Shown here: positions 1 through 17,216 of the stretch, piece by piece
Layout of the letters: each line of letters starts with the position of its first letter
Numbering within the stretch: position 1 is the stretch's first letter
Origin: Promethearchaeota archaeon
GTDB lineage: Archaea > Asgardarchaeota > Lokiarchaeia > Sigyniarchaeales > SOKP01
NCBI GenBank assembly: GCA_019058015.1
Contig: JAHLWH010000208.1
Location: 1-17,216 of the forward strand
Length of the DNA stretch: 17,216 nucleotides
Direction: 5' to 3'
Made by a program: the position numbers and the translations under genes
Notes under the pieces: generated by a model
Databases searched by the model: none
What the model saw: the letters and a program-made list of their open reading frames with translations, nothing else
Told to the model about the DNA's origin: nothing

Positions 1-1440
1 ATTCCCGATCCATTTATATCCACTATGGCTCCGCTAACATGTTTATAGGGTATTTCGAACTCTCTATATGATACTGTAATATTTAAACTCTGATTTGTAT
101 ATAGTGTAATTGATGGTACGACTGTTTTTTCTGCCCCATTTAGATATAATGTTAAATTTGTTTCTATTCGTATTATTTCTATTGTAAGGAAAATCATTTG
201 AGGTTCATAGTTATCTTTATGAGCATAAATTGTTAAAAAATTTGCTCCGGGATTTAAATCTGTCGTATCTATAAGTACTGAATAATTGGTTCCAAATTCA
301 TTAAAAACCTCAGAAATTCCAGGTCCATTTATTTCTACTGTAGCACCACTAACATGATTGTAGGGACTTGCAGCCTTTTGATACGATACTGTAATATTTA
401 AACTCTGATTTTTATATTTTGTAATTGATGGTACATCAGTTATGTCTGTCCCATCTATATATAATGTTAAATTTGTTTCTATTTGTATTATTTCAATAGT
501 AAGTAAAATCGTGTGAGGTTCATACTTATCTTTACGAGCATAAATTGTTAAAAAATTTGCTCCTTGATTTAAATCTGTCGTATCTATAAGTACTGAATAA
601 TTGGTTCCAAATTCATTAAAAACCTCAGAAATTCCAGATCCATTTATTTCTACTATAGCGCCGCTCACATGGCTGTAGGGACTTGCAACCTCTTGATACG
701 ATACTGTAATATTTAGAATCTGATTTGTGTATTGTTTAATCGATGGAATGGGCGTAATATCTGTCCCATTTATATATAATGTTAAAGTTGTTTCTATTTG
801 TATTACTTCTATTGTGAGTAGTATTGATTGAGGTTCATAAGTTTCTTTTTGAGCATAGACAGTCAAAAAATTCACCCCTAGATTTAAATACGTCGAATTT
901 ATTTCTACGGAATAATTATTGAAAGCCTCAACAAATTGTTTAGATATTCCTGATCCATTTATATCCACTGTAGCACCACTAATATGTTCCATCAAGATAG
1001 AATCTCTATAGGAGACGGTAATATTTAACAGCTCATTATCGGTTAATTGGTAAGATGGATCAGCTGTTTTTTCTGTTCTATTGAAGTATAAACTGTAAGT
1101 AGTTCCTCTTTCAAAAACTGTAATAGTTAATAGTTCCGAACTATACGAATAGTTATCTTTTTGAGCAGTAATAGTTAAAAACTTTACGCCGACACCTAAT
1201 TCTGTTGAATTTAAAGTTAAGTTATAGTGTTGGAACGATATACTTTCGTTAAAATTTTTATCTACGTCCGTTCCTATTAATTTTACCGTGGCATTATTAA
1301 TAAAAGTTCCACTTGTTTCATTATCTTTAAATTTTACCGTAATATTCAAAAATTCTCCTGCTTTAACATTATAAGATTTATTACTCGTGCAATCGCTACC
1401 ATTTATGAAAATATCATCTAAATATGCTTCTCTTTCAATA
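1..1440 (-). repeat. Intragenic tandem repeat, ~312-321 nt (~105 aa) unit, 4 full copies plus one cut by the window edge
   Basis: The anchor encoding NITV(S/K) recurs at about 71, 386, 701, 1013 and 1334 (spacings 315, 315, 312, 321). Segment 251-322 is identical to 566-637 (72 nt). Consensus approx. ETxLTLYxNGT..PSI..YxNQxLNITVSY....HVSGAxVxINGSGIS..FxEF..NYSVxIxTTxLNxGxNFLTIYAxKxxYEP. Confidence 0.95.
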
Positions 1441-3923
1441 ATTTCAATTTTTATTAAAATAGATTGAGGCTCATAACCGTATTCATCTACATCAATAATT
1501 AAAGAATGAAGTTTATTTACTTCATATGCAGAACTATTACAAGTTATGTTATATACTCCTGGATCACCCATAACAGTATGAGTATCTCCATTCCAATTAA
1601 CTATGGGAGTCGTTATAATACCATTGCTGGATTTTTTTTCTGTATAATTAAGATGGATCGTAAAATTTTGATTCCATGGAACTTGTAAATAAGGATATTC
1701 TTCAGCTGTAAGTATGGTTTCTTTAATTACATGAATTGTTATGTTTGTTGTACAATCTAAATATAATGGAGAAGTCGCATTAATCTTTAAGGTATTATTA
1801 CCCCCTACTGCACCGCTCACGTTAAAATCTTCAAGTAAATAATAACCTCCTCCTATATAAATAAAATTTTGGATTCCATTAGTAAAATTTTTCACGGAAA
1901 CTTGAGCATTTTCTATAGGATAATTATTTTCGGGATCTTTAAGCTCAACTTTTAAATTTAATGTAGTGTCTTCATAAACATTTTCATAATAATCTTGAAT
2001 AGGTGTTAAAATAGAATCATGTTTTACGGTAAATTTTTTGTAAATTACACCAGTTTCATTTAACCCATAAGATGAATAAGAATTATTCCAAATAATAATA
2101 ACATCATACTCTCCTACTTCATAAGCGGGAGGCGAAGACGGTATTTGAAAATAATCAAAATAGATCAATCCGTTCTCATCAGGTGATTTTAATTGAGTTT
2201 TTTCACTCCAAATTGTACCGTTCGGAAACCTTATAAGACGAGTTGCTTTTGTATCTTGAATATATGCAGAGATTAAACCAGTATTCGATATTTTGGCTGT
2301 AATATTGACGTAATCTCCGCTTATAAATTCATTATCTGGTGTCCAATCATTACCAGTAGGAGTATTTGTAGTATTTTTGAAAATATTTAATTGCTCGCAA
2401 TAATTGGGTGATAATGCTTCAAACTTCCAAAAGCCATCTGGTGTGGCAGATATTTCAGAAACATCTACTATTAATAATCCTGCTGTTGAGTTATCACATG
2501 AATCTAAATCTAATTTATTAGTAAGGGGGTCTGAAGGGTAGGAAACCCATGTGATATTTACATCAGTCGGAAATTCAAGTCTCATTTCTGTTTCAGCGTA
2601 TGCCGTTGGAACTGAGGTATATCCATAACATTCCCAATTTACTAAACTATCATTACTTACAGAGAAACTGGTACCTAATGAAGCTGTATTTGTCTCATAA
2701 TTAGTTTCCGGAGAAGATTTGTTCGCAAAAAGATTTAGATCTGTTTTAAAATCGACATCATAACCACCCAATTCCGAGGGCCAAACCTTACCACTGCTAA
2801 AATTAGCGTGCACCCAAGGATATTGGGTACCATCCCAATTACCATCGATTTCTACAATTCCTTCACCCCAATCAATATCATTCACATAATTAGTCTGATT
2901 AATATGCAAATCAATTTGTTCGGGTTTAGCTTCTGCTTTTACGATTAAAGATACATTATCAATAAGGACTTGTTGATATGACCCATAAGCTTGATAACCC
3001 AAGGATGCCCCATTTCTTATTAATTGTATCGTAAGATTCATATTTTTTACTCCCGTTGGGAATACAGTATCATCATTCAGCCAATTCGTTAACTGTAATT
3101 TCAAGGGTGCCCAACCACCATTTCCAGTTATTTCTATCCATATAAGATTTTTATCATCAATTAATACACCATTTATGATAATTTGAACGCTCCAATGTGT
3201 TCCGTATTCGCCTGTTCCTCCACCTTGTGGATTATACTGCGTCCAAGGATACATCATAAGATCTAATTCACCCTCAATCACCTTTCCCCTTGGCAAAGTG
3301 AAATTCGACTCCCACCAACATTTATCGAATTTATCATACGAGTTACCAAAGGCTCCGTTCATTCTTAATTCCATGACATCATTACCAGTCCCAGTAGGAT
3401 CGTCAGTGCTATCAAAATAATTTCCGCTCATATCATTGCTATATCCTACAATATCGAATTCACCCCATGTCCAATTTTGAAGATAAATACTATCATCTTC
3501 AGGACAGTCGTTATCATTATCATCAGGTCCAGCGTGGAAAGTTCCATTGACCCAATTTCTTTTATCATATAAATCCTTAATAGTAGCGTTTAGTTTATAT
3601 CCTATCCAATCAATATCCAAAGGCATATTTTTAATATCATATGAGTTATTTTCAAAACTTACTTCTAAGTTATTATCCGTTCGATTTGCCCAATGAGTTA
3701 AATTCCATGCAGCACCAATGCCATCATAAAAATTATCTGAGGTTAAACTTTGGGACCTTAAGTCATTATTTTCCAATTCCTTTATAGTATCATCATTGGG
3801 ATTATCAAAATATCCATTTTCATTTGTGTAAATATTGGGTGTAATGAAACTTAAAGAGAAGATTATCATTAAACTAATTAAAATTAATATTTTTTTGTAA
3901 TCATAACTGTTTTTTTTATTCAA
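1..3923 (-). CDS. Large predicted surface glycoprotein (>1300 aa, C-terminus beyond left edge), paralog of 7977..11657, with tandem ~105-aa beta-rich repeats
   Basis: Not in ORF track because no stop lies in the window. Manual translation from TTG at 3923 gives MNKKNSYDYKKILILISLMIIFSLSFITP..., and the frame is still consistent at 3540, 1640 and 3-20 (...DINGSG). It has a hydrophobic N-terminal signal segment and many N-x-S/T sequons. Motifs are collinear with the 1226-aa paralog (DNPND, SPNY, PNGTIWS, GEY.V.I.W, GGG.Y, PW..N). AGGT SD-like sequence lies upstream. Confidence 0.9.
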   Translation of the reverse strand, partial: MNKKNSYDYKKILILISLMIIFSLSFITPNIYTNENGYFDNPNDDTIKELENNDLRSQSLTSDNFYDGIGAAWNLTHWANRTDNNLEVSFENNSYDIKNMPLDIDWIGYKLNATIKDLYDKRNWVNGTFHAGPDDNDNDCPEDDSIYLQNWTWGEFDIVGYSNDMSGNYFDSTDDPTGTGNDVMELRMNGAFGNSYDKFDKCWWESNFTLPRGKVIEGELDLMMYPWTQYNPQGGGTGEYGTHWSVQIIINGVLIDDKNLIWIEITGNGGWAPLKLQLTNWLNDDTVFPTGVKNMNLTIQLIRNGASLGYQAYGSYQQVLIDNVSLIVKAEAKPEQIDLHINQTNYVNDIDWGEGIVEIDGNWDGTQYPWVHANFSSGKVWPSELGGYDVDFKTDLNLFANKSSPETNYETNTASLGTSFSVSNDSLVNWECYGYTSVPTAYAETEMRLEFPTDVNITWVSYPSDPLTNKLDLDSCDNSTAGLLIVDVSEISATPDGFWKFEALSPNYCEQLNIFKNTTNTPTGNDWTPDNEFISGDYVNITAKISNTGLISAYIQDTKATRLIRFPNGTIWSEKTQLKSPDENGLIYFDYFQIPSSPPAYEVGEYDVIIIWNNSYSSYGLNETGVIYKKFTVKHDSILTPIQDYYENVYEDTTLNLKVELKDPENNYPIENAQVSVKNFTNGIQNFIYIGGGYYLLEDFNVSGAVGGNNTLKINATSPLYLDCTTNITIHVIKETILTAEEYPYLQVPWNQNFTIHLNYTEKKSSNGIITTPIVNWNGDTHTVMGDPGVYNITCNSSAYEVNKLHSLIIDVDEYGYEPQSILIKIEIIEREAYLDDIFINGSDCTSNKSYNVKAGEFLNITVKFKDNETSGTFINNATVKLIGTDVDKNFNESISFQHYNLTLNSTELGVGVKFLTITAQKDNYSYSSELLTITVFERGTTYSLYFNRTEKTADPSYQLTDNELLNITVSYRDSILMEHISGATVDINGSGISKQFVEAFNNYSVEINSTYLNLGVNFLTVYAQKETYEPQSILLTIEVIQIETTLTLYINGTDITPIPSIKQYTNQILNITVSYQEVASPYSHVSGAIVEINGSGISEVFNEFGTNYSVLIDTTDLNQGANFLTIYARKDKYEPHTILLTIEIIQIETNLTLYIDGTDITDVPSITKYKNQSLNITVSYQKAASPYNHVSGATVEINGPGISEVFNEFGTNYSVLIDTTDLNPGANFLTIYAHKDNYEPQMIFLTIEIIRIETNLTLYLNGAEKTVVPSITLYTNQSLNITVSYREFEIPYKHVSGAIVDINGSG

Positions 3924-4086
3924 AATACTCAACCTATATTTTTTCCAATTGTTATAAACATTATTTTATAAATATGTAAATAATATTAAAAAATCTGATT
4001 ATATATAATTAGCTTAAAGTGATAAAATAAAATTTAACAAAAAAAATAAAGGAAATTTTAAATAATATGTTAGGGGTTGATTTTAA
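3924..4086. promoter_or_regulatory. Putative bidirectional archaeal promoter region, cassette 1
   Basis: 163-bp spacer between head-to-head starts. A palindromic TATA element TTATATATAA at 3999-4008 sits almost exactly central. Blocks shared with the second spacer: AATAAAATTTAA and TTTTCC(A/T)ATTGTT. A G-rich SD-like element (AGGGGT) precedes ATG 4087. Confidence 0.6.
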
Positions 4087-5340
4087 ATGATTCAAGGTAT
4101 TTTAATTTTTAAGTTTATTCTAAATCAAACAGAAACGGGCGAATTTGTACCGGAATTCAGACCGATAAAACTAGTTTTTAATAATCAAAAATTCACTGAA
4201 GCTAATTATTCGGAATTAATTGTTCAAAATGATATTTTTGGAATATTTTATCAACATACAACTGGAATAGTTGCAGATAAAGGTGTTTTTAGTAATTTTT
4301 ACTCAGGAAGGTTAAAAGAAACATCTTATCAAATTATGTCATATTTCAGACAAGAAACAGATGGTTCTCAATATATAACGATAGCAATTTTTGAATTAGA
4401 GGATGAGCTCGAAATATTTTTAGAGATAATTAAAAATATGGCAGAAAGTTTAAATACCATATTCGAGACATTAGTAAAAATAAATGAATTACAGCAAATT
4501 TCTCTGCTTGATAAAATGATTTCTAAATTTGAAAGTGTAATAAAATTTGCTATCTTTCAAATTGATCGTTTATCTGAATTAGATAAAATACAGAAAGCAG
4601 CTTTGATTTTTCATAGTAAAGAGAGATTAAAAATATTAGAACTGTTACGAGAAAAACCTATCTCAAAAAAAGAATTGAAAAATGAGTTGGAAAAAATAAA
4701 AGAGAATCCAAATGTAGATGTGTTATTGGATCCTTTCTTAGAATTAAACTTAATAAAACGTGATTGGATTAAAGGGAAGAGAGATAAACAAACGGGTATA
4801 ATTAAAAATCAAGGTGAATATTTATTTTTAACAAAAGATATATTCTTTGTCCGAATCCCAAATATAAAATTATTAAATCATTTAAAAGAAATCAATCATG
4901 AGTTATATCCTAAATATGAACAAAAAGTAGTTGATTTCTTTTCTAAGTACGATCCTAATACACAGTCCATTGAAGAAACGAAATATTTAGCTTCTATTCT
5001 TTTGAATCCAGATGTATATGATTTTTTCGTTTTAATGAGAAGTAAATATTATCCCTTAGATAAAATGCCAAATATTTTTTCAGAATTCGCCGATACTGTA
5101 ATGATATTAAATGATTTAAAAGAGTATAATGTGATAACTGAGATAAAAGATAAGAGCAATAGGAGTTGGATATTCCTATTAACTGATATTAAACCGCTAA
5201 TATTTTTTCCAGAATACTTACTTCTTAAAGTTAGAGAAGCTTATAAAAATGAAAATAAAGATGAAAGGTTATCATATGAAATTGCTAAGAAAGCTCTTGA
5301 TTTATTAGAAGTTGCATATCCTGAGAAAGTCGATTTTTAA
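4087..5340 (+). CDS. Conserved hypothetical cytoplasmic protein (417 aa); predicted N-terminal longin/uDENN-like domain plus tandem winged-helix domains
   Basis: Long ORF with no TM segment, about 78% identical to 11827..13074. ERLKILELLREKPISKKELKNEL...LLDPFLELNLI resembles an ArsR-type wHTH. A second wHTH-like segment is LNPDVYDFFVLMRSK...ILNDLKEYNVI. The longin-like assignment rests on pattern only. Confidence 0.9.
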   Translation: MIQGILIFKFILNQTETGEFVPEFRPIKLVFNNQKFTEANYSELIVQNDIFGIFYQHTTGIVADKGVFSNFYSGRLKETSYQIMSYFRQETDGSQYITIAIFELEDELEIFLEIIKNMAESLNTIFETLVKINELQQISLLDKMISKFESVIKFAIFQIDRLSELDKIQKAALIFHSKERLKILELLREKPISKKELKNELEKIKENPNVDVLLDPFLELNLIKRDWIKGKRDKQTGIIKNQGEYLFLTKDIFFVRIPNIKLLNHLKEINHELYPKYEQKVVDFFSKYDPNTQSIEETKYLASILLNPDVYDFFVLMRSKYYPLDKMPNIFSEFADTVMILNDLKEYNVITEIKDKSNRSWIFLLTDIKPLIFFPEYLLLKVREAYKNENKDERLSYEIAKKALDLLEVAYPEKVDF

Positions 5341-5348
5341 AAATAAAA

Positions 5349-5356
5349 TTTTTTTT
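5349..5356 (+). terminator. Oligo-T tract, candidate archaeal intrinsic terminator
   Basis: T8 run 8 nt after the stop of 4087..5340. The AT-rich background weakens the signal. Confidence 0.4.
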
Positions 5357-5395
5357 AAATTAAAAATTACTGATAGACGAAAATTTTTATCTTAA

Positions 5396-6009
5396 ATCTC
5401 ATTTAACTACGCCTTGAAGAAATATAAAAAAGAGAAAGTTTCTTCCAAAATTATAAAGCGAATGATCGGAACTCCTTTATACGAGATGTTTAGAGAAATA
5501 ACATATGAATCACCTGAAAAATATGTATCCGCCTTCCGCGATTTCTATGGAAAGAAGGGAATTTATCAATCAAAATTAATTAAAGGTGTAAAGAAAAAAT
5601 TAAAAGAATTAAAAGAAAGTGGGTTTCTCTTAGGAGTGTTATCTTCAAAAAAACATGAAATGGTCTATAATATTCTAAAAATCTTAAAAATAAACCACTT
5701 TTTTGATTTATATTTAGGAGAAACCGAGCAGAGAAAGAAAAATACGATCCAATTACTAAAAAAATATTAAATGAAAAATTTCCTAGTAAAAAAATAATTG
5801 TAATTGGAGATCATATAAATGATCGCAAGGTTGCAGAAATGTTTGGTTGTCCATTTATTGGCCTTTTAACGGGAACAACATCTAAACAAAAATTAATAGA
5901 TAATCTATTAGTTCCTCATACAGTATTAAAAAAAATAAGAGATATTGATTCCAGTATAATTTATTCAATATTAAAAGAAAAACGAAAAATTACAATTTAT
6001 TTTAATTGA
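5396..6009 (+). pseudogene. HAD-superfamily phosphatase (phosphoglycolate-phosphatase-like), 5'-truncated and frameshifted
   Basis: The first frame reads ISFNYALKKY...MIGTPL...LIKGVKKKLKELKESGFLLGVLSSK (cap region plus motif II), but no DxD motif I is found upstream (TAA at 5393). After a frameshift near the A-rich stretch at ~5735-5765, the -1 frame reads ...KKIIVIGDHINDRKVAEMFGCPFIGLLTG... (motif IV GDxxxD) to TGA at 6007-6009. Confidence 0.85.
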
Positions 6010-6312
6010 TTCATAATCGGCTTGGAGGATAATTGAATAGATTGAATCAATCTCAACGTTTTATTTTTTCATTTTCTCGACGTCCTCTTTCCAATTCTTG
6101 GAGAAGTTCCTCCACTGTGTTCTTTTTTAAAGATTTAAAACATAAATCAAATTTTTTCTAGTCTTTATTATAGTGATAAAAGTTTTTTCTCTCACCAATT
6201 ATTATTTCCTCTCTTAATAGGAATAATAAAAATTTTTAGGCGTTTGGAAATGTTAGAGATAAAATTTTTCCTTTATCGAATCTTGCAAGTATAAAAAATT
6301 ACGAGTTAAGAT

Positions 6313-6621
6313 TTAATTTTCTATTTTTTCTAAAATACTATCCTTAATAATTGGTGTAAATTTTTTTAGAAGAATTATATAAAGAATAGTGAAAAAAAAT
6401 GCTAGAAAAAACGTCATTGGGACAATATAACTCACTTCCATACCAACAGCTTTTCCTAAATGGCGAAATGTTTCTCTACTAAAAGTTTGTTGATCCAAAA
6501 TCCATGATAAATAGGTAAACCATAAAAAAACTAAAATTAAAGAAGATATCAAAATAATTACTTGATATTTTGCTTGAATTCTTAGTTTTCTTAATTCCTC
6601 TTTTAATTTTTCATCTTTCAT
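6313..6621 (-). CDS. Small hypothetical membrane protein (102 aa, 2 TM)
   Basis: Two hydrophobic stretches (VIILISSLILVFLWFTYLSWIL; YIVPMTFFLAFFFTILYIILL) with charged termini. Its ATG overlaps the end of the upstream ORF by 11 nt and is preceded by GAGG. Confidence 0.75.
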   Translation of the reverse strand: MKDEKLKEELRKLRIQAKYQVIILISSLILVFLWFTYLSWILDQQTFSRETFRHLGKAVGMEVSYIVPMTFFLAFFFTILYIILLKKFTPIIKDSILEKIEN

Positions 6622-6892
6622 TCAATTTTTTTTCCTCTTTAAATAACTTTTCAATTTTCTTTTCCGCAGACCTTATAATAAAATAAGACGCTATTGCACC
6701 TTCACCTCCAAAAACTGTGCAGCCTATAGACCAGGCAGAGATTTCAATATCCGGTATTATTTGAATAAGGTCATAGGAGAGCATCGCAGTTCCATAAAAT
6801 AAAATCGAGAGGAAAATAAACTGAAGATATTTTATTACAATAATGAACTTTTGAAGTTTTTCCTTTTCTAAAGCGTAAGACAAATAATTCAC
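6611..6892 (-). CDS. Small hypothetical membrane protein (93 aa, 2 TM)
   Basis: GTG start, two hydrophobic stretches (second one Gly-rich with an embedded Glu: WSIGCTVFGGEGAIASYFII) and a charged helical C-terminus. Overlaps the next gene. Confidence 0.7.
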   Translation of the reverse strand: MNYLSYALEKEKLQKFIIVIKYLQFIFLSILFYGTAMLSYDLIQIIPDIEISAWSIGCTVFGGEGAIASYFIIRSAEKKIEKLFKEEKKLNER

Positions 6893-7006
6893 CCCAAGTT
6901 TAAAAATAAAATAAACAGAATTTACTTAAAAACATTATGAGAATATGGTTTAAAAAAGAATTTGTCAATTAATTTACTGAATTTTGCAACCAACCAAAAT
7001 AAGAAT

Positions 7007-7777
7007 TCATTTTAATACTGCAAATTCATTTATGAAATTCAGAATTTCAGAAAATAATAAATCCTCATCAGGAATTTTTAAGATGGGGTGATCACTATTT
7101 TCAAGCCAAATTTTTTTTTTATTTTTGGAGTTTATCATTCCATAAATCTTATCCATACTTAAGGTTTTAATCACGCCATCTAACCTTCCTTGAATTAATA
7201 GAGTAGGACAGGTAATTTTCGGATAATATTTTTTAAATTATTTAATTATTTTGAATAGTCTTGTTCCAGCTTTTAGAGGAAATTTATCATATCCCACCCA
7301 CGCACCATCTGTTTCTTTTTCAAATTCATCTATAGGAAGAGGATAAGATTTAATAAAATATTTTATTAACGGAAGCAATTTTGGTAAGATTCCTTTAATT
7401 CCTATAGGAGCACTTATCGTAAATATTGCATCGGGATTTTTTATAGCTCCTAAATATAAACTAAAAATTGCCCCCATACTATGCCCTCCAACAACAATCT
7501 TTTTTGCTTTTTGCTTTAAGAAATTATATTCTACTTCAAGATCTTCCATCCAAGCAGAGATCGGTGTATCTTTCAATTCTTCTGGTGTTGTTCCAAATCC
7601 GGATAACAACGGAACTCTTACTGTAAAACTTCCTTTATTATGCAAAAATTCTGCCATTGGCTTTAAATCGGCTGCAGTTCCGCCACCTCCTCCATGTAAT
7701 AATAAGACACCAATATCATTTCCTTCAAAATAGAAAGGACCAGCACCTGGCATTATATTACGATTAGAATTGTCCAT
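7007..7777 (-). pseudogene. Alpha/beta-hydrolase carboxylesterase (Est30/YvaK-like) interrupted by one in-frame TAA at 7238-7240
   Basis: PFYFEG..IGVLLLHG and nucleophile elbow GHSMG lie in the annotated part. The same frame continues past TAA as FKKYYPKITCPTLLIQGRLDGVI...IWLENSDHPIL... to TGA at 7007-7009, which supplies the catalytic Asp and His (256 codons in total). Could be a sequencing error. Confidence 0.88.
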
Positions 7778-7922
7778 TTTAATTTACTCTTTTATCATAT
7801 TGTATTTATTAATATTATATGAAAAACATAATTTCAAATATTTATACCTTGTAAGAAAGAATATTCAATTTATTTATTTAATTTTAGAAATAAATTTGGA
7901 TTTGAAAAGGTAAAATTGTGTC

Positions 7923-7950
7923 AAAAAAAAATTTTAAAATCTATAAAAAA
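7923..7950 (-). terminator. Oligo-T tracts downstream of the 1226-aa gene
   Basis: Plus-strand A9 (7923-7931) and A6 (7945-7950) are T-tracts on the coding strand 27-55 nt after the stop. Confidence 0.4.
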
Positions 7951-7976
7951 GAAAGGATTTTTAGTCTATTTTTAAT

Positions 7977-10900
7977 TTATTTCTCATTTTTTTCGGATTC
8001 TTCAGGTGATATTTCAGATAAAGTATCAATTAATTCATCTTTTGATAGTTTTAGTTTAAGTTGTTTTTCTGGTTGTTCATATTTCATATTCTCTTTAAAG
8101 AATTTAGCAATTGGACCTAACTCTTCTTTGTAGAGGGTTGTTAATGCATCTTTTCTCGAAAGAATTTCAACATCCAGAACTTTCTTCTTCTTTAAAGTTT
8201 TCTTGAATTTATGAGTTTTTCTAACAGGTTTTGGATATTTTAATACTCTTTGATATGCAATAAAATAACCACCCACACCAACAGCGACTGCGATACTAAT
8301 TATTGTTAATATTTGAAAAAGTAAGGTTGCTTCTTCGGGTTGAATTACATTTAAAGTTATTTCAAAACTTTTAAACTCATAATCATCTCCTGCATAAACC
8401 GAGATAGTTATTGTATAAGTCCCTTCAGGAACATTTGTTATAGTTGCTTCATATTTCCCGTCTTTGTCTGAAGCTAGTAGTTCACCTTGTCCAAATATCC
8501 ATGCATATGTAACAGTTGCATTTTTAATAGTTTGGTTAAAATCTAAATCGTATAAAATCACGTCTATTGTAACACTTTCTCCAGGTCTGGCATTTATCGT
8601 AGTCATCCCTGATTCTGTTGCAACATTTATGCTAATTTTTTTAACATTAATCCGTAAAACAAAGGAATTTGATTGATAATTTGCCTTCTGTGAATAAATT
8701 GTTAAAAATTTAATCCCAATTCCTAATTGATCTGTATTAATAATAATTGAATATTGTTCTAATGTTGAGTTTTCCGTTAAACTTTCAGTAAGTCCTTCCC
8801 CAATTAATTGTACTAGTGCAGTATCAACGTGAGTTGCGCTTATTAAATCTCTGTATTTTATTGTAATATTTAAAGTAGCACCTTTTGGAAGATCAATGGA
8901 TTTTTCAAGAGTTTTATTTTCTCCATCCAAAAGTAGTTCTACATATGTTGATCTATCTTCAATAAAGATGTTAATAAGTGTTGTAGCATCGGAATAATTC
9001 GTTTTATTGGCGGTTACATAAATCTGATATGTTCCTGCAGCGTTAAAAAGTGAAGTATTGAAAATGATATTATATGTTCCTAATGAAGGTTCATAATAAA
9101 AAAAATCATTGGAATCCCAATATTGAGCTCCAAGTTCAGAACTGATTGTAATATCTGCACTAGAAATCAATCTTTCATTATCTATATCCCCATATTTACA
9201 TTGAATTGAAACATTTGAATTAAAATCTACAGGATCTGGCTGAATGTAGGAGATATTAGTGTAAATTTTGCGTATATTTAATGCAATATAAATTTCTTGA
9301 TCCTCATAACCATCCAATGATGCATTTATTTTCAAGGGATATGTTCCAAATGTTTTAATTGATGTATTTATTATTACTTTATAATGACCTGAACCCAAAT
9401 CTTGAATCCAATAATAATTTAAATCCCAATCACAATCAATAGTTGCGCCTGGAATCCCATGATTACCAGAACCATTGTAAGAAACATCTATTGATGCATT
9501 TTTGCCCCAAGGAATGCTTAATCCACCTATCTGAGGTGATGTAAGGTTAGTTCTCTCTGTTATTTCAAGTTTAATTAGCTTTTCTTCGTATCTTGATATA
9601 TAATATGTTTTATTTGCGGATACTGAGATATTATATAATCCAGATTGCCAGTTTGTAGTATCAATTTCATCAACGTAAATCCCACCACCAAAATATACCA
9701 TATCTCCCGTGATTGCCGTCTCGTTATCAATTGTATAATTTATATTTGCGCCAAGAATTCCCTCTCCAGTATCACTATCGGTATAATTTACTTTAATAAG
9801 TACGGTATCCCCAGAATAAATTGGACTAACTTTCTCTTTTTGATCACTAGCTCGAGTTAATGTAGTATTATGGGTTACATCAAAATTCAGTACAAATAAA
9901 CCGATTTGAGATGATTCATTATTCTTCCAGCGAATATTTACTGTGTATTCACCAGCAGTTGCGTTTTGTGCTCCAAAAGTAAAGTTGGAAAACTCTATAT
10001 TTCCTGAAGAACTTACTGGCACTTCTTGAGTTGCTTGAGACCAGATGGTACCATTTGGATAATAGATTAACAATGTGGCGTTTGTTAGAGAGATATATGG
10101 ATTTAATGTATTATTAATTGTAGCATTAATTTTAATTAAATCAAGGATTTCAAAACTTGTATTTTTCTCCCAATTAATAGTTTCCCATTTCCATATTGAA
10201 GCATTTAACACATAATTTGGAGATTCTGCAATGATTTTCCATCTCCCATTAACCGTAATATTATTAGGAATTATTAAGGTAGTATTACCGATACCCGAAG
10301 TCTCTGATACATTAAGAATTTTATCGGAGCCATATGGATCAATTAAATGAGTAACGTTCCAATTCCAGGGTTTTGATACGTTAAAATAATAATCAGTTTG
10401 ATATGTTCCAGGAATAGATACGGGAAAATACATTGTCCAGATGGTTGAGGTGCCATTTTCTACATAAAATTCACTCCCAGGATTCCCAACTTCTGTGGTT
10501 GTGTTGCTTAATGATGTGGCATTTACAAAAAAATCTGAATAAATTATTACGTTACCTGTTGAATTTGAAGAGAACGAAAATTCATGATCAGCTCCACCTT
10601 CAGCTCCATCCCAGCTACCCCCTAGAGTTGTTGTGCCTAATCCATGCTGTCTTCCTATATCTGAAATTGGACGATCTTTTTCTCCACTAGGAGCCTTATC
10701 TGTTATGTTAAGTTTAATCTGAGATGGTCTTGGAATGGTTGATATTTCTAAAGTAATGTTATCATAATAAACTTCTAAATACCCCATTGGGTCATAGTCT
10801 TTAGCAGCATAGTCAATACCAAAAAGTATGCTAATATTACCTGGAGGATCAAAATCATACATTTCTGGAGTGAAAGGATCAATACTCGCATCTTTCCAAG

Positions 10901-11657
10901 TGTTGTTAGGATAATTTGTACTAGATATTTTAGCCAAATAAAATCGATTACTTACCGATTGTGTTGCTGACGTACTTATGTTAATTTCACAGTAAATTTT
11001 TGATCCTGGTGGAGGTACCCACCATCCGTCTGCTTCATAGGAAATATTTGATACAAACTTTACTTTAAATTTTATAATCCAATCGTTATATTTTATTTCG
11101 TCTCTATCTAGTTCAAAAGAATAATTTAAATAAGAATTCGTGTCATTCCAATATGTCCTATTATCAAATCTCATATATATCGAAGATTTTGGTCCTGAAG
11201 CGTCATACCATCCAGCTGAAAAATAATTTGTATCTCCAGTAGTAGAATTAGACCAATAATTAGGATCAATAGGATTATCAAAGGTCTCATTCATCCACAT
11301 CTTATCATATTCATATATATTTGTTACATTAATCAAAATTTTACTAGCATTCCAATTATTTGGAACCTTTATTGATGCATTTTCAGACTTTGATAAGTTA
11401 ATATTATTATTCTGAAAGACCCCTTGGCCATACTCTGTCACATTTTGGTGTGTTCCAATTCCAGAATACTCATCTGAGAAACTTTGAGTTTTTAAACCTT
11501 TATTCTGAAGTTCATTTGTCGTTTCATCATTAGGATTATCAAGAAATGTATTCTTATTTATGTTAAAACTAAGTGTAATGAAATTCAGAGAGAATATTAA
11601 AATCAAACTGATGAGAAATAATATTTTTTTATATTTAGATGTTTTAATTCTTTTCAA
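7977..11657 (-). CDS. Large membrane-anchored surface glycoprotein (1226 aa): signal segment, beta-rich Ig-like ectodomain, C-terminal TM, 91-aa basic cytoplasmic tail
   Basis: TTG start at the position equivalent to the paralog's. N-terminal hydrophobic segment, very many N-x-S/T sequons, and repeated G.Y.I.INT....G.Y.I.V.A.K..Y units. TM LLFQILTIISIAVAVGVGGYFIAY is followed by QRVLKYPKPVRKTHKFKKTLKKKK. Confidence 0.93.
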   Translation of the reverse strand: MKRIKTSKYKKILFLISLILIFSLNFITLSFNINKNTFLDNPNDETTNELQNKGLKTQSFSDEYSGIGTHQNVTEYGQGVFQNNNINLSKSENASIKVPNNWNASKILINVTNIYEYDKMWMNETFDNPIDPNYWSNSTTGDTNYFSAGWYDASGPKSSIYMRFDNRTYWNDTNSYLNYSFELDRDEIKYNDWIIKFKVKFVSNISYEADGWWVPPPGSKIYCEINISTSATQSVSNRFYLAKISSTNYPNNTWKDASIDPFTPEMYDFDPPGNISILFGIDYAAKDYDPMGYLEVYYDNITLEISTIPRPSQIKLNITDKAPSGEKDRPISDIGRQHGLGTTTLGGSWDGAEGGADHEFSFSSNSTGNVIIYSDFFVNATSLSNTTTEVGNPGSEFYVENGTSTIWTMYFPVSIPGTYQTDYYFNVSKPWNWNVTHLIDPYGSDKILNVSETSGIGNTTLIIPNNITVNGRWKIIAESPNYVLNASIWKWETINWEKNTSFEILDLIKINATINNTLNPYISLTNATLLIYYPNGTIWSQATQEVPVSSSGNIEFSNFTFGAQNATAGEYTVNIRWKNNESSQIGLFVLNFDVTHNTTLTRASDQKEKVSPIYSGDTVLIKVNYTDSDTGEGILGANINYTIDNETAITGDMVYFGGGIYVDEIDTTNWQSGLYNISVSANKTYYISRYEEKLIKLEITERTNLTSPQIGGLSIPWGKNASIDVSYNGSGNHGIPGATIDCDWDLNYYWIQDLGSGHYKVIINTSIKTFGTYPLKINASLDGYEDQEIYIALNIRKIYTNISYIQPDPVDFNSNVSIQCKYGDIDNERLISSADITISSELGAQYWDSNDFFYYEPSLGTYNIIFNTSLFNAAGTYQIYVTANKTNYSDATTLINIFIEDRSTYVELLLDGENKTLEKSIDLPKGATLNITIKYRDLISATHVDTALVQLIGEGLTESLTENSTLEQYSIIINTDQLGIGIKFLTIYSQKANYQSNSFVLRINVKKISINVATESGMTTINARPGESVTIDVILYDLDFNQTIKNATVTYAWIFGQGELLASDKDGKYEATITNVPEGTYTITISVYAGDDYEFKSFEITLNVIQPEEATLLFQILTIISIAVAVGVGGYFIAYQRVLKYPKPVRKTHKFKKTLKKKKVLDVEILSRKDALTTLYKEELGPIAKFFKENMKYEQPEKQLKLKLSKDELIDTLSEISPEESEKNEK

Positions 11658-11826
11658 AATAAATAACCCTATTATTTTCCTATTGTTTTACATTTCAAAT
11701 TAAATGAATGAATACTATAATATAGATGAAATTTTATATATTTAATAACTGACTTAGAATATCAATAATAAAATTTAATGAAGAAATAAAGTTAATTTGT
11801 TATTATACGTTTGGGAGATGTTTCAA
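11658..11826. promoter_or_regulatory. Putative bidirectional archaeal promoter region, cassette 2
   Basis: 169-bp spacer with central GAAATTTTATATATTT (BRE/TATA-like, ~11728-11743). Collinear similarity to 3924-4086. GGGAG precedes ATG 11827. Confidence 0.6.
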
Positions 11827-13074
11827 ATGATTCAAGGTATTTTAGTTTTTAAATTTATTTTAAATCAAAATGAATCAGGTGAGTTTGTACCGACATTCAG
11901 ACCGTTAAAATTAATTATTAATAATGAAAAATTCACTGAAATGAATTATTCGGAATTAATTGTTCAAAATGATATTTTTGGAATATTTTATCAACATACA
12001 ACGGGAATAGTTGCAGATAAAGGTATTTTTAGTAATTTTTACACAGGAAGGTTAAAAGAAACACCTTATCAAATCGTGTCATATTTTAGACAAGAAACCG
12101 ACGGTTCTCAATATTTAACAATTTCTATTTTTGAATTGGATGATGATATCGAAATTTTCATGGATCAAATTAAAGAGATGACTGAAAGATTAAATCTAAT
12201 TTTCAAAAAATTAATTGAAATAAATGAATTAAAGCAAATCTCTCTTTTTGATCAAATTATTTCTAAATTTGAGAGTGAATTAAATTTTACCATCTTTAAA
12301 ATTGATCGTTTATCGCGATTAGATAAATTACAGAAAGCAGCCCTAATCTTTCATAGTGATGAGAGATTAAAAATATTAGAATTATTACGAGAAGGTCCGA
12401 TATCAAAAAAAGAGTTGAAAAACATATTGGAAAAAATAAAAGAAAATCCAAATGTGGATGTATTAATTAATCCTTTCTTAGAATTAAATTTAGTAAGACG
12501 CGATTGGATTAAAGGAGAAAGGGATAAAAGAACCGGTATAATTAAAAATCAGGGAGAATTTTTATTTTTAACAAAAGATATATTTTTATCTCGAGTTCCA
12601 AATTTAAATTTATTAAACCATCTAAAAGATACCAATCATGAGATATATCCTAAATATGAACAAAAGGTAATCGATTTTTTTTCTAAATATGATCCTAATA
12701 CACAAACTGTTGAAGAAACGAAAAAGTTAGCATCGATTCTTTTAAACCAAGATATATATAATTTTTTCGTTTTGATGAGAAGTAAATTTTATCCCTTAGA
12801 TAAACTTCCAAAAATATTTTCAGTTTTTGCCAAACCTGAAATAATATTAGGTGATTTAAAAAAGTTGAATATAATGACAGAGATAAAAGATAAAAAAGAA
12901 AGGAGTTGGATGCTTTTATTAACCGATATCAAACCACTAATATTTTTTCCAGAATATTTACTTCCTAAAATTTTGGAAGCTTATAAAAATAAAGATGAAA
13001 GAATAACATATGAAATTGCTAAGAAAGCCCTCGAATTATTAGAAGTTGCTTATCCAGAGAAAGTTGAATTTTAA
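11827..13074 (+). CDS. Conserved hypothetical cytoplasmic protein (415 aa), paralog of 4087..5340
   Basis: Start revised from TTG 11797 to ATG 11827 because it aligns with MIQGIL of the paralog and has GGGAG upstream. Full-length alignment with a single 2-aa gap. Confidence 0.92.
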   Translation: MIQGILVFKFILNQNESGEFVPTFRPLKLIINNEKFTEMNYSELIVQNDIFGIFYQHTTGIVADKGIFSNFYTGRLKETPYQIVSYFRQETDGSQYLTISIFELDDDIEIFMDQIKEMTERLNLIFKKLIEINELKQISLFDQIISKFESELNFTIFKIDRLSRLDKLQKAALIFHSDERLKILELLREGPISKKELKNILEKIKENPNVDVLINPFLELNLVRRDWIKGERDKRTGIIKNQGEFLFLTKDIFLSRVPNLNLLNHLKDTNHEIYPKYEQKVIDFFSKYDPNTQTVEETKKLASILLNQDIYNFFVLMRSKFYPLDKLPKIFSVFAKPEIILGDLKKLNIMTEIKDKKERSWMLLLTDIKPLIFFPEYLLPKILEAYKNKDERITYEIAKKALELLEVAYPEKVEF

Positions 13075-13209
13075 AAATTTTATTTATTTCCAATTTTTTA
13101 TTTTGTCTGGTGATTTTTTAGATATTTTTTTAGTTAATTTATCAAAAAATTTTTGAATTACTACTATTGGCTTTGTAATTTTACTTTTTAATAACCTAGA
13201 AATTTGTAA
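13075..13209. terminator. Convergent intergenic region with several oligo-T tracts (plus strand) and an A-tract (minus strand)
   Basis: T6-T7 runs follow the stop at 13074. TCAAAAAATTTTTGA at ~13142-13156 could serve both strands. Confidence 0.4.
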
Positions 13210-14847
13210 TTAATAATTAAAAAGAAGATTTTTAATAGTATTCAGCATGACTTCAAGTTGGTTGTAAATTTCCAAGCGATGTTCTTCTCCAATTTTAAAG
13301 AACAAGAGTGAAATCATTTTTTCTTCCGCTTTCTCGCTAATATCAAATTCTTCCATCAATTGTGACCATTCATTCTCTTCAGAAACCCTAATTCCAATTA
13401 AAATAACTCTGTTTTTTTTGATTTTTTCAATGATTTTAATTACTGTATCATTCCATTTTGGATCGATATGTTCTTTCTCTCTCGCATCAAATATACAAAA
13501 GACACCATTAGAATTAGAAATTTTAAATGATTCACAGTCAAAATTCTTTAAAACTAACCCATTTGAATATTTAAATATTTTTTCGTTGTTTTTATCTCTT
13601 ACTTTTAAATATTCTCCTAATTCTCCTATTTCCGCTAGAATCTGTAAGCAAGGGCTCCATAATGGATCTTCAGTAATAAATGATAGAGTTAAGGAACTAT
13701 GATCCTTTAAAATTGAATTAATTTCACTTAATATCGCATTTTTTAATCTTTTCTCTTCTATATCTTTACTCTTTAACATAAAATGATAAGAAAGTAACCT
13801 AAAAGCATATTCAACATTATCTCCAGTTAATGCGCTCGTTTCAATATATGATATCTTAGTTTTTATATCTTCAGATAAATCAGATAAATCAGAAAACTCA
13901 GATAAATTAGATGAATCAGATAATCTTGATAAATCTGATAAATCACTTACTAATTTCACACCATCTTGATAACTAATTACTCTTTGTTCAATCAAATCAT
14001 TTTTATTTCCTATTATTATAATAGGTAAATCTTTATTCTCAATGAATTCTTTAAGCTCATTGTGCCAATTTTTTACATTTTCAAATGTTTCTTGAGACGT
14101 TAGGTCAAAAACGATGAATGCGGCTTGGGCACCATTATAATAAGTTTTTCGATATCTTTTAAAATATTGTTGTGCACCTATATCCCAAAGCCACAAGTTA
14201 ATCTTATTTCCAAAAGCTTCAAAATCATGTGACATAATATTAAGGCCTATGGTGGTACGATAATCTGCTAAAAATTTATTTTCTACAAACCTTCGCATTA
14301 TTGAAGTCTTCCCAACTTCGTGATCTCCAATTATTATAAATTTAAAACGATACATCCCACCGAGATCTAATTTACTCTGATAAATTTGGTTTTTTAATCT
14401 GTCAGAACTTTTAGAAAGTTCCGCTTCATATTCAAAATTGGGAATGGATAATGGTATTAAATCATCCTCAACAGCAGTAAGAATTTGTGCAATCTTTTCA
14501 GCTAGAAAATATGCATAAGGCGCTAATTTATCAACAGAACCCATTTGTTCCAAAACAAAACTTAACGTTGTTATTTCATCCACAGAAACAAATAGTAATC
14601 GATTATCATCCGTATCGAAACTTGCTGTTCCAAACTTTTTAAAAGTGAATTCATTACGAATCCGTTCTAAGACTGGATTAACAACAGCGGTTAAAAAAGA
14701 GACTATTTCCATATCAATATCTTTTCTTTTTTCCCCAGCAATAATTAATCCTTCTTCATCAGAGACTATTATGGCTTCTAATTCTTTATTAATTTCCAAA
14801 AAATTATTCAACAATTCAGTAAAGAGCAGAGCTTTATTTATTGGCAA
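13210..14847 (-). CDS. Roadblock/LC7 domain - Rab-like small GTPase - degenerate second G-domain fusion (545 aa)
   Basis: The N-terminal ~125 aa have a Roadblock pattern (LEAIIVSDEEGLIIA). G1 GDHEVGKT (14305-14328), G2 YRTTIG, G3 WDIGAQ (14170-14187), G4 NKND, G5 ETSALTG. YYNGAQAAFIVFD is Rab-like. No C-terminal cysteine prenylation motif. Confidence 0.93.
   Translation of the reverse strand: MPINKALLFTELLNNFLEINKELEAIIVSDEEGLIIAGEKRKDIDMEIVSFLTAVVNPVLERIRNEFTFKKFGTASFDTDDNRLLFVSVDEITTLSFVLEQMGSVDKLAPYAYFLAEKIAQILTAVEDDLIPLSIPNFEYEAELSKSSDRLKNQIYQSKLDLGGMYRFKFIIIGDHEVGKTSIMRRFVENKFLADYRTTIGLNIMSHDFEAFGNKINLWLWDIGAQQYFKRYRKTYYNGAQAAFIVFDLTSQETFENVKNWHNELKEFIENKDLPIIIIGNKNDLIEQRVISYQDGVKLVSDLSDLSRLSDSSNLSEFSDLSDLSEDIKTKISYIETSALTGDNVEYAFRLLSYHFMLKSKDIEEKRLKNAILSEINSILKDHSSLTLSFITEDPLWSPCLQILAEIGELGEYLKVRDKNNEKIFKYSNGLVLKNFDCESFKISNSNGVFCIFDAREKEHIDPKWNDTVIKIIEKIKKNRVILIGIRVSEENEWSQLMEEFDISEKAEEKMISLLFFKIGEEHRLEIYNQLEVMLNTIKNLLFNY
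13871..13951. repeat. Degenerate 9-nt tandem repeat (TCAGATAAA consensus, 8-9 copies) encoding (S-D-L)n inside the GTPase
   Basis: tcagataaa tcagataaa tcagaaaac tcagataaa ttagatgaa tcagataat cttgataaa tctgataaa tcacttact; protein SDLSDLSRLSDSSNLSEFSDLSDLSE. Confidence 0.9.
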
Positions 14848-15171: not shown

Positions 15172-17216
15172 ATGTATTTATTTAAAGATCAAGAGGAAAT
15201 AACAATTCCTTTTACCTGTAAATCTTGTTTAAATGAAATAAAATTTGTAATTACAGCAAAGGAATATGAAAAAACCACAAAATTTCCTATTAAAAGAGAA
15301 CATATTCATGGAATACCTCGACATAAATTGATTGTATTTTTTGATAAGAATTTAGAGGTTGCAAATTTTAAAGTAGAAGATATTTTAGAAAAAGATGTGT
15401 CTTATTCTCGTGAATTAACTAGACAAGTTTTAAGCGAAATTGAATTATCTGATGAGGAAATAGAATTATATTTCTTGACAACTGGGAGAGCTGCAGTGTC
15501 TCTTGGAGAAATAGCCATTTTAATTGATAAAACAAAAGAAGAATGTAAAGTAATTGCCGAAAAATTTGTCCAAAAGGGTTTATATAAAAAAATAATTGGA
15601 GCCACTCCACATTATACCACATTACCTCCTTATGCTGCATTGGTTGGTCAACTAAACAAATTTAATTCACTCATAAGTAATATTAAAGAAAATATTCCAC
15701 CTCAATTAAATCAATCATTGGCTGAAATTGAAATAAAAACTGAAGGAGTTAAAAAAATTAAAGATTTTAGTGCATTTATGAATGATTTAAAGCAAAATAC
15801 ACTTTCAAAAATGAGTTCTCAAAAACAAGATCTTGAGAATAGTATTGCTGAAATCAATAAAATAAAATTAATTGCTGATATTATTGAGAATCTTGAATCT
15901 GAGACGAAAGAACTTATGGAAACACAAATTGAAAATTTAGGTAAAAAATTTAATGATGTACAAACAAAGATTTCGAAAAATTTGAAAAATTTACGCCTTG
16001 GGGTTATTCAACAAACTGTGGATCAGATAATTCAAAGTGTTTTTACAGCAGAAATTGAGGAAATTAAAGAGGTGCTTAATAAACAATTTTTTTTAAAATT
16101 TAATAAATCATTAAGAATGTTGGTTAAGGATATGAATAATATCGCTAACGCTATGGCAAAGACAGGAGATAACGTAAAAAAAATTTTCATCGACATGAGT
16201 AAGAATTTTAGTAGTTCACTAATAAGGGCAGAGGAGAATCTTTCTGGTATTTCTGAGATTATATTAAGATCATTCACCGATTTAAAAAACGATTTTTCAA
16301 CTAGAGTTATTAAAACTTTTGAAGAAGTTTTAGAAAAAATTCTAAATAGACTAGAAATTAGCGACATAACTACCAGAGAGTTTTGGGAAAGGGCTAAAAG
16401 AATTTCATTATTAACAATGAGAGATATTTGGTTTATAAGATCCATTGAAGGTGTGAAAGCTCATATTAATGAACAAATTTCAAAAGCAAAAATGAGGTTA
16501 TTAATTGTGTCTCCTCAACTCACTGATATTAATGTTAATGTTCTACAGAAGATTCCAAAATTTGTAAATATTAGAATTGCTACGAATATAGATCTATCTT
16601 CTTCTGATCATGCAATGATTTTACAAGAATTAGACCAGATGCAAAACGTTTCATATAGGCATCGAGAAATGCAAAATTTATGGGGCGTTAATAAAGATCA
16701 TGAAGAAGTTGTACTTTGTGTAGTAGCAAAATCGGAAGTTGGAGGTAAAGATATAACTGAAATTGCTGGTATTGGTAGTATGATTGAAGAGCATATAAAA
16801 ATATTCACTCCCATTTTAGAGGAAGCCTGGATTGGTGCGCGAAAAGAGATTTTTCATGCCCTTGAAAGAAGAGGTATTAAACCTTCAGTTCAAATACCTG
16901 TAAGCCCCCAACCGACTCAACCATCCTTCCAATCTCAAAAAGTAGATATAAAAAAACTAATTGAAACAAGAGAAAAAATAGAAACGCCGATAAAAATAGA
17001 ACCTCATAAACAAGAACCTATGAAGAGCGACCAATTTGCTTCAGTACAAACTCAAATACCTGAAAAAAAAATAATCCGAGTAAAAGAAAGCATCACTTCT
17101 GCTGAGTTTGAAAGTGCTGAAATAACTACACTCAATGATTTAGCAAACTATTTTGAATTTATAAAACACCAACTCGAGAAAAAAACAGGTGTAGAAATTT
17201 CCAAACTGATAAGAGA
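15172..17216 (+). CDS. Multidomain TrmB-like protein (>681 aa, runs off right edge): CxxC/His Zn-like domain, wHTH, long coiled coil, TrmB effector/PLD-like domain, Pro/Gln linker
   Basis: Not in ORF track. ATG 15172 follows an in-frame TAA at 15166. MYLFKDQEEITIPFTCKSC...HIHGIPRHKLIVFFD. LSDEEIELYFL...VSLGEIAILI...AEKFVQKGLY...PHYTTLPPY matches the TrmB N-terminal pattern. DIWFIRSIEGVKAHINEQISKAKMRLLIVSP...VNIRI matches the TrmB C-terminal pattern. Open to the window end. Confidence 0.88.
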   Translation, partial: MYLFKDQEEITIPFTCKSCLNEIKFVITAKEYEKTTKFPIKREHIHGIPRHKLIVFFDKNLEVANFKVEDILEKDVSYSRELTRQVLSEIELSDEEIELYFLTTGRAAVSLGEIAILIDKTKEECKVIAEKFVQKGLYKKIIGATPHYTTLPPYAALVGQLNKFNSLISNIKENIPPQLNQSLAEIEIKTEGVKKIKDFSAFMNDLKQNTLSKMSSQKQDLENSIAEINKIKLIADIIENLESETKELMETQIENLGKKFNDVQTKISKNLKNLRLGVIQQTVDQIIQSVFTAEIEEIKEVLNKQFFLKFNKSLRMLVKDMNNIANAMAKTGDNVKKIFIDMSKNFSSSLIRAEENLSGISEIILRSFTDLKNDFSTRVIKTFEEVLEKILNRLEISDITTREFWERAKRISLLTMRDIWFIRSIEGVKAHINEQISKAKMRLLIVSPQLTDINVNVLQKIPKFVNIRIATNIDLSSSDHAMILQELDQMQNVSYRHREMQNLWGVNKDHEEVVLCVVAKSEVGGKDITEIAGIGSMIEEHIKIFTPILEEAWIGARKEIFHALERRGIKPSVQIPVSPQPTQPSFQSQKVDIKKLIETREKIETPIKIEPHKQEPMKSDQFASVQTQIPEKKIIRVKESITSAEFESAEITTLNDLANYFEFIKHQLEKKTGVEISKLIR

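Follow-up and report, generated by a model that had tools for sequence, protein, structure and literature searches.

The 17,216-nucleotide window analysed here, the whole of one contig (C212) of a 3.84-Mb Asgard archaeal genome that is 94% complete, carries, on our somewhat favoured reading, two copies of a conserved Lokiarchaeial module that couples surface proteins to a cytoplasmic switch. The parts of this module would be between one and three surface proteins (S) that are single-pass, heavily N-glycosylated and highly variable, a 417-amino-acid (aa) cytoplasmic protein (A) in which a longin-like domain precedes two winged helices, a TrmB-like protein (P681) and, in part of the family, a small GTPase with a Ras core. 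We consider it likely that A binds the cytoplasmic tail of S and that the genes work as a single functional module; granted both, a regulatory output and a structural or positional one seem to us evenly balanced.

A preliminary description of this DNA had recognised two divergent units of a giant surface glycoprotein and a cytoplasmic partner, and both are present. In the first, S1 (3..3932, minus strand), of which the N-terminal 1310 aa are contained in an open reading frame (ORF) still open at the contig end, diverges from A1 (4087..5340, plus strand, 417 aa); in the second, the complete 1226-aa S2 (7977..11657, minus strand) diverges from A2 (11827..13074, plus strand), which is 415 aa long from a conserved MIQG start and has an upstream TTG at 11797. 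The two spacers align with each other, and the lengths first given for them, 163 and 169 bp, are reproduced when S1 is started at its second TTG (3923), the position matching the start of S2; counted from the TTG at 3932, the first spacer (3933..4086) measures 154 bp, and the second occupies 11658..11826. The estimate of about 89 differences between the A copies was accurate as well (326 of 417 positions identical, 89 mismatches and 2 gaps). The two-gene outline, however, proved too narrow: S and A are indeed linked, but the conserved unit has three parts, with P681 as the third, and is joined by the GTPase in a subset of loci. In the window these are the 545-aa GTPase gene (13210..14847, minus strand) and the P681 gene (15172..17214, plus strand, open at the contig end). 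The contig continues at its left end into C161 (100% identity over 102 nt), where the rest of S1, with its transmembrane (TM) segment and tail, is followed by a hydrolase gene, and at its right end into C41 (100% over 134 nt), which holds the last 54 aa of the 735-aa full-length P681.

Linkage of this set (hereafter the cassette) was followed in 40 relatives belonging to the same order. In 32 of them A has a match over its full or nearly full length, and 37 loci from these 32 genomes were examined; the other eight (G003, G006, G013, G016, G018, G028, G030, G034) gave partial or paralog-level matches only and stand outside the counts, which derive from profile searches of six frames and are given by family, f1 being that of the window. 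P681 lies within 3 kb of A in 28 of the 37 loci (f1 19/24, f2 8/8, f3 1/1, f4 0/4). Of the five f1 loci without a close P681, two are truncated by the end of their contig, and in the other three GTPase or S genes intervene and the distance to P681 is 4.0-6.6 kb. In 22 of 37 cases the locus includes an S ORF that bears the tail (f1 16/24, f2 5/8, f3 1/1, f4 0/4), and the 11 loci of f1 and f2 in which it is missed are all cut by contig ends, six of them showing an S-like ORF that runs off the contig; S with the tail motif is thus present in every f1-f3 locus not cut in this way (22 loci). Gene order differs between the families, with S divergent from A and P681 in f1 and the order A, P681 and one or two S genes on a single strand, with gaps of 0-20 nt, in f2 and f3, which indicates that the set was kept through rearrangement. 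Hydrolase, HAD, metallo-beta-lactamase-fold and FAD-reductase-like neighbours are not kept across families. A GTPase of the 545-aa type occurs within 1 kb of A in 9 of the 24 f1 loci and in none of the f2-f4 loci, and is a lineage-specific member of the cassette.

The S proteins combine very variable ectodomains with a tail that bears one shared motif. S1 and S2 both begin with an N-terminal signal or anchor and hold 55 N-x-S/T sequons each, against about 20-22 expected from composition; S1 has tandem repeats of about 105 aa, and S2 has beta-sandwich repeats followed by one TM helix (residues ~1108-1132 by hydropathy; 8262..8336, minus strand) and a 94-aa cytoplasmic tail (7980..8261, minus strand). 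The two ectodomains had been said to share scattered motifs only, a view that has to be given up, since their repeated beta-sandwich modules are clearly homologous (27% identity over 909 aa, E = 1e-54); across cassettes, S ectodomains are mosaic and unalignable. The S2 tail contains, in its first ~55 residues, a conserved motif consisting of a basic stretch (..AYQxVLKYPKPVRKVRKYRKTL..) and then a short helix (..RExAFxxxYxxEL..), and the tails of 28 S proteins, whose ectodomains range from 424 to 2174 aa, align on this one motif. In the window's own genome and in five near-complete relatives, the motif is confined to cassette S genes: in the former the tail profile matches four ORFs, all four of them cassette S genes, and in the latter 10 of 10 matches at E ≤ 0.06 have A no more than 10 kb away, the remaining five listed matches having E-values of 0.18-0.33.

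Three further features of S genes were observed. The tandem repeats of S1 measure 315 nt (105 aa) with ~82% nucleotide identity (1-671 vs 316-986, within window positions 1..986). The S tail of G004, a relative of the same genus (L037:9822-10103), is mosaic, its first half resembling the S1 tail and its last ~40 residues being near-identical to the S2 tail, which suggests recombination among S genes. Finally, a 1831-aa ORF of G023 (L040:10737-16232) has two TM segments and two tail motifs, and could be a genuine two-pass form or a pair of S genes that were read together.

A co-fold of the tail with A, which the preliminary description had proposed, was run three times with A2 and residues 1-58 of the S2 tail, each supplied as an alignment, and with three controls. 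The interaction prediction score from aligned errors (ipSAE) was 0.84, 0.85 and 0.85, against 0.00 for the best of the three controls, with a predicted local distance difference test (pLDDT) value of 76 for the partner and 100% agreement of contacts between runs. The calibration of ipSAE, in which 58 of 80 solved complexes and 2 of 110 mismatched pairs attained the mark, is only a rough guide here because our own alignments were used. The predicted interface comprises residues 251-263, 278-291, 369-387 and 395-409 of A and residues 10-56 of the tail, and the model supports A-tail binding at the level of a prediction. Together with their joint presence in every assessable f1-f3 locus and with the exclusive tail motif, this agrees with the earlier proposal that A and S are a dedicated pair.

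The model of A itself is confident (pLDDT 88.6; predicted TM-score, pTM, 0.79) and comprises a longin-like domain (residues 1-107), a helical hairpin (108-163), two winged helices (167-258 and ~295-373) and C-terminal helices (377-410). The topology of the first domain is bb-a-bbb-a (E2-14, E20-31, H47-58, E68-75, E81-89, E95-103, H108-135), with no N-terminal helix, a helix that separates Roadblock domains, where it is present, from longins, where it is absent (PMC10933270). In Foldseek searches of the PDB, the top of the list is taken by FLCN/FNIP2, AP2 sigma, the Lokiarchaeal longin 8yqg, TRAPP, SMCR8-C9orf72 and Lst4, the longin matches having probabilities of 0.92-1.0, E-values of 1.7e-3 to 0.1 and TM-scores that are lowered by the multi-domain query. 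At the level of families, no curated longin family matches A, for which Pfam gives only a weak winged helix-turn-helix hit (PF25213, E = 0.013); NCBIfam holds no family for A, P681 or S, a profile search of A against PDB sequences returned 0 matches, and the Atlas gave only clusters named 'hypothetical protein', the name that every public homolog of A bears as well. The initial label of a longin-like, winged-helix partner therefore holds for the modelled longin topology and the two winged helices, but finds no counterpart in a curated longin sequence match.

In longins that act as GTPase-activating proteins (GAP), a G-P motif closes the loop that precedes strand 2, with a conserved arginine finger beside it (PMC12290439). 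Membership of A in this type was rejected, as G-P occurs in none of 37 A orthologs; the position is occupied by G-E or G-D in 32 of them and by other residues in L062, L061 and three f4 sequences. A candidate for the arginine finger, R75, is kept in 31 of the 37. The genome also encodes three distant paralogs of A (C21:20360-21484, C38:4733-5872 and C177:9181-10413; 25-30% identity, 374-410 aa), not beside cassette genes, whose N-termini (..RWDTQLGP.., ..KWDERIGT.. and ..HRKIGP..) resemble the WD/GP motifs of GAP-type longins.

P681 is TrmB-like at the level of its modelled fold only, in which a winged helix (residues 75-150) and a phospholipase D (PLD)-like domain (419-555) are separated by a helical region of ~260 aa, preceded by a beta domain (1-70) and followed by a disordered linker and a small C-terminal helical domain. 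Foldseek retrieves TrmBL2 (5bpd_C, 5.6e-8), TrmB (3qph_A, 4.1e-5; 2f5t_X, 6.8e-5) and PLD-fold proteins, and neither Pfam nor NCBIfam reports a TrmB sequence family for P681 at E ≤ 0.1. A profile search against PDB sequences gave only helical low-complexity matches, the helical region fits apolipoprotein-like profiles, and the precomputed matches of P681 homologs are of apolipoprotein type only. To our knowledge, the TrmB-type winged helix binds DNA in all characterised TrmB proteins. A zinc site may be present in residues 1-70 (15172..15380), where a C-x2-C is accompanied by two histidines (CKSC ... HIHG ... H); the columns of these cysteines fall below 90% conservation. The 545-aa GTPase has a Ras-family domain at 169-352 (PF00071, E = 1.3e-40; TIGR00231, 6.4e-20) with readable G1, G3 and G4 motifs (GDHEVGKTS, DIGAQ, NKND) and extra N- and C-terminal domains; Pfam finds no Roadblock family on it at E ≤ 0.1, and the label 'Roadblock-type' comes from a reading of the protein sequence.

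The genes of the cassette diverge at very different rates. In comparison with G002, A retains 97% aa identity (synonymous divergence, dS, 0.06; ratio of nonsynonymous to synonymous divergence, dN/dS, 0.18), the GTPase 92% (dS 0.19), P681 76% (dS 0.44) and S 63% (dS 0.67, dN/dS 0.40). The expected contrast of a diversifying S with a constrained A is thus real insofar as S diverges much faster, but its synonymous divergence is tenfold higher too, which, with the mosaic tails, points to segment replacement or old alleles and not only to amino-acid selection. Positive selection over the whole S gene was considered and is not seen (dN/dS 0.30-0.40).

Beyond the order, 300 further genomes of the phylum were searched with the profile of A, and 12 loci were inspected. 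Full-length A (E < 1e-160) occurs only in its own order, and elsewhere it is mainly the C-terminal half (~158-412) that matches, with E-values of 1e-26 to 1e-40 and in 164 of 301 genomes. In the three loci of family f7, a 361-aa A-like gene lies in one strand-run with the gene of a ~1550-aa single-pass protein, and in f25 the membrane protein encoded beside the A-like gene has the same tail motif in two of three loci (E = 3e-10 and 6e-10). In all three f16 loci (L077:2810-5411, L078:8843-11583, L080:7371-10596), an A-like protein of 514-580 aa, with a double winged helix and without a longin, is encoded beside a GTPase that itself begins with a match to the clathrin-adaptor small-chain (longin) family (E = 0.003). 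That one lineage has the longin on A and another has it on the GTPase is a hint, though not a proof, that the three work together.

In the mechanism that we propose, the S tail would dock in a groove of the two winged helices and C-terminal helices of A, and this docking would tie A to the membrane beneath each surface protein. The longin domain and hairpin would be left free to dimerise, or to hold P681 or, where present, the GTPase. The output that we prefer would be control of the TrmB-like partner, a putative DNA-binding protein, for instance by keeping it at the membrane, with each regulator feeding back on, or signalling to, its own set of surface proteins; the cassette would in that case act as a receptor and its transducer. 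Several observations weigh against this proposal. The model of P681 is only moderate (pLDDT 65.9, pTM 0.31), and no Foldseek match of A reaches E ≤ 0.001. Within the C-terminal half of A, conservation is not higher at the predicted interface than elsewhere (0.649 vs 0.641, permutation p = 0.42), and the differences between A1 and A2 are not enriched in the interface (8/36 vs 81/379). The relatives are kin, so that the locus counts are not independent. Moreover, A lies next to P681 or S in none of the four f4 loci, one of which is cut by a contig end; a survey of the neighbourhoods of A homologs, as the preliminary description had envisaged, accordingly finds A linked in f1-f3 but unlinked in f4. 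In three of the four f4 genomes, a P681-like gene is found within ~1.2 kb of a tail-positive giant ORF; the fourth has a completeness of 63%.

A structural or positioning role involving the GTPase is nearly as likely as control of the TrmB-like protein. As a full account of the cassette, which we would support only tentatively, it holds that A anchors S from the inside and that P681 and the GTPase organise, sort or place the surface proteins, for example on protrusions, in the manner of eukaryotic cargo-tail adaptors and small-GTPase platforms. In favour of such a scaffold are the best matches of the A longin fold, which are GTPase-platform and coat-adaptor proteins, and it fits the GTPase genes adjoining A in f1, the longin-GTPase fusions that adjoin the A-like protein in f16, and the ~260 residues of apolipoprotein-like helical repeats in P681. 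It would also suit Lokiarchaeal cells, on which an ordered S-layer is absent and complex surface proteins are present (PMC9834061). It is harder to reconcile with the 28 of 37 loci that have no GTPase within 1 kb of A, with the missing GP motif of GAP-type longins in all A orthologs and with the TrmB-type winged helix retained by P681, and no cytoskeletal gene is linked in the window.

It is improbable, in our view, that A and P681 act on the neighbouring S genes as ordinary local transcription factors without contact to the tail, the latter serving in stop-transfer or lipid binding. The divergent arrangement in f1 is that of a regulator and its target, there are three winged-helix domains across A and P681, the basic tail obeys the positive-inside rule, and the predicted interface is not extra-conserved. 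Against this stand the A2-tail co-fold, which passes while its controls stay at 0.00, and the tail motif, which reaches ~45 residues past a plain stop-transfer signal and is kept across ectodomains of at most 27% identity. The f2 and f3 genes, moreover, lie in one co-directional operon, and a longin domain would be unusual in a transcription factor. Coupling of the surface proteins to a cytoplasmic switch through their tails stays our preferred reading.

The two copies in the window are themselves informative. A1 and A2 share 79% aa identity and 84% nucleotide identity (1047/1251), with dS 0.50 and dN/dS 0.24, and A2 is intact and under purifying selection. This nucleotide divergence leads us to reject a duplicate created by the assembly, a danger that the preliminary description had itself named, and the caveat of a chimera now concerns the join between the units. 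In each of two public runs (X1, 10.1 vs 12; X3, 32 vs 35), which may be the source sample, the copies form separate contigs of comparable depth. The join (7146-8229) is bridged by no contig among the Logan contigs of four runs, and for the tandem arrangement the assembly is therefore the sole witness. Copies of the cassette break the assembly elsewhere, with A or S fragments at the ends of C13, C41, C44, C161 and C248.

At the DNA level, the copies align in two stretches, one comprising A, the spacer and the first ~65 S codons (80.7% over 1641 nt; 3735-5361 vs 11472-13095), the other the last ~310 codons of S2 and the hydrolase gene against the continuation of S1 on C161 (77%), while the middle parts of S1 and S2 are unalignable. 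The duplicated block was consequently larger than the two genes first described: S and A were duplicated, and an alpha/beta-hydrolase gene (7016..7777, minus strand) and a HAD-hydrolase gene (5399..5982, plus strand, identified by alignment with an intact copy on C55) came with them as passengers. The former is interrupted by an in-frame TAA at 7238-7240, codon 180 of 254, and the latter is a pseudogene that has lost its first 26 codons and has a frameshift near 5683-5740. C161 holds the start of an intact hydrolase gene and C55 the end of one, followed by the intact HAD gene and a 442-aa gene; the gene order is the same in G004, whose genome is in 10 contigs, which identifies A1-S1-hydrolase-HAD as the ancestral locus and A2-S2-hydrolase'-HAD' as the tandem copy. 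In this copy the passengers have decayed, and A2 and S2 are intact.

In the tree of A, A2 is sister to (G004, (A1, G002)) with support of 100/98, so that the copy either predates these species or arrived by recombination. Both cassette types of the genus group together (97/98), the origin of the two types being unresolved in this tree; gene conversion or separate duplications could produce such a grouping. Further A fragments at contig ends (C44, C248, C13) bring the number of A loci in the genome to at least four, two of which could be strain variants, since the 411-base overlap of C44 and C13 contains 10 differences. In the other type of cassette found in the genus, the second one, a 166-aa gene without a Pfam match lies between A and S (C44:1504-2004, C248:839-1339, L036:11322-11822, L072:2911-3411).

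That the adjacency is inherited synteny in a variable surface-protein island, with no functional tie and with a duplication that is neutral and segmental or a chimera of the assembly, is very improbable: the kinship of all relatives within one order, the unbridged join and the breaks of the assembly at cassette copies speak for it, but the set is kept where its order is rearranged and where the hydrolase, HAD, metallo-beta-lactamase-fold and FAD-reductase neighbours are not kept, A2 and S2 escaped the decay that befell the passengers, other Asgard families again show linkage of tail and A-like genes, and in a relative with a 10-contig genome one contig bears two cassettes separated by 11 kb.

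Of the remaining features of the window, two small membrane ORFs (102 and 93 aa; 6313..6892, minus strand) overlap by 11 nt and may be one frameshifted gene or an insertion; the ~1 kb in which they lie has no counterpart between hydrolase and HAD in G004 or on contig C55. In runs X3 and X5, there are contigs with one extra base behind position 5737 in the HAD pseudogene.

The preliminary description did not recognise the cassette as a named system, and we found no fitting one in Pfam, NCBIfam, the names of public homologs or the Atlas. Full-text literature searches, passages of PMC10933270, PMC12290439 and PMC9834061 and the listing of PMC11284389 yielded no description of it either; the supplementary lists of the first two (GTPase architectures and Asgard longins) lie outside this scope and may include the families. 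Asgard genomes encode dozens of longin, Roadblock and small-GTPase proteins without assigned partners. In Tran et al. (2024, PMC10933270), gene layout is said to reveal only rarely which regulator pairs with which GTPase, and the GTPase genes of MK-D1 to lie generally outside operons with Roadblock or longin genes. Against this background the cassette is a rare testable set, made up of an S-tail peptide, a soluble 417-aa predicted binder, a TrmB-like partner and, in some lineages, one particular GTPase. It also supplies candidate genes for the 'complex surface proteins' of Lokiarchaea, and its presence in near-complete relatives of the same order brings biochemical and cell-biological tests within reach.

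Three known systems invite comparison. As in TrmB and TrmBL2, P681 has a winged helix, then a helical dimerisation region and a PLD-like domain; unlike them, it has an extra N-terminal beta domain, a helical region expanded to ~260 residues, a long disordered linker and an extra C-terminal domain, and its model has no visible sugar-binding barrel. With the clathrin-adaptor chains (AP sigma and the mu N-domain; 6uri_S, 2vgl_S, 7p3x_S), A, as modelled, shares the longin fold, and the cassette would share their logic, in which the tails of single-pass proteins carry a short conserved motif that is read by an adaptor in the cytoplasm. It differs from them in that it comes without adaptin partners or linked vesicle machinery, and in that the tail is predicted to lie on the winged-helix part of A, not on the longin.

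The third comparison is with the longin GTPase platforms of eukaryotes (FLCN-FNIP2, C9orf72-SMCR8, NPRL2/3, Lst4/Lst7 and TRAPP), which, like the model of A, have an N-terminal longin fold (8dhb_I, 1.7e-3; 6ulg_N, 2.2e-3; 7mge_C, 4zy8_D, 7u06_D). The small GTPase encoded beside A in part of f1 adds to this likeness, as do the A paralogs of the same genome, which have WDxxxGP or xxxxxGP at the matching place, a resemblance to the motif of PMC12290439 that is our own reading. A itself departs from the platforms in having G-E or G-D (neither in f4) where GAP-type longins have G-P, in carrying a hairpin and two winged helices where they have a DENN domain behind the longin, and in its predicted ligand, which would be a membrane-protein tail bound on the winged helices. 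In its most far-reaching form, which we regard as speculative, our reading would have the S tail read by an adaptor of a longin and tandem winged helices that recruits a small GTPase and/or a TrmB-like protein, in Lokiarchaeia and, in other forms, in other Asgard archaea. If true, the cassette would be the first matched set of receptor, adaptor and GTPase in Asgard archaea, and a prokaryotic forerunner of the logic by which a cargo tail, a longin adaptor and a small GTPase work together.

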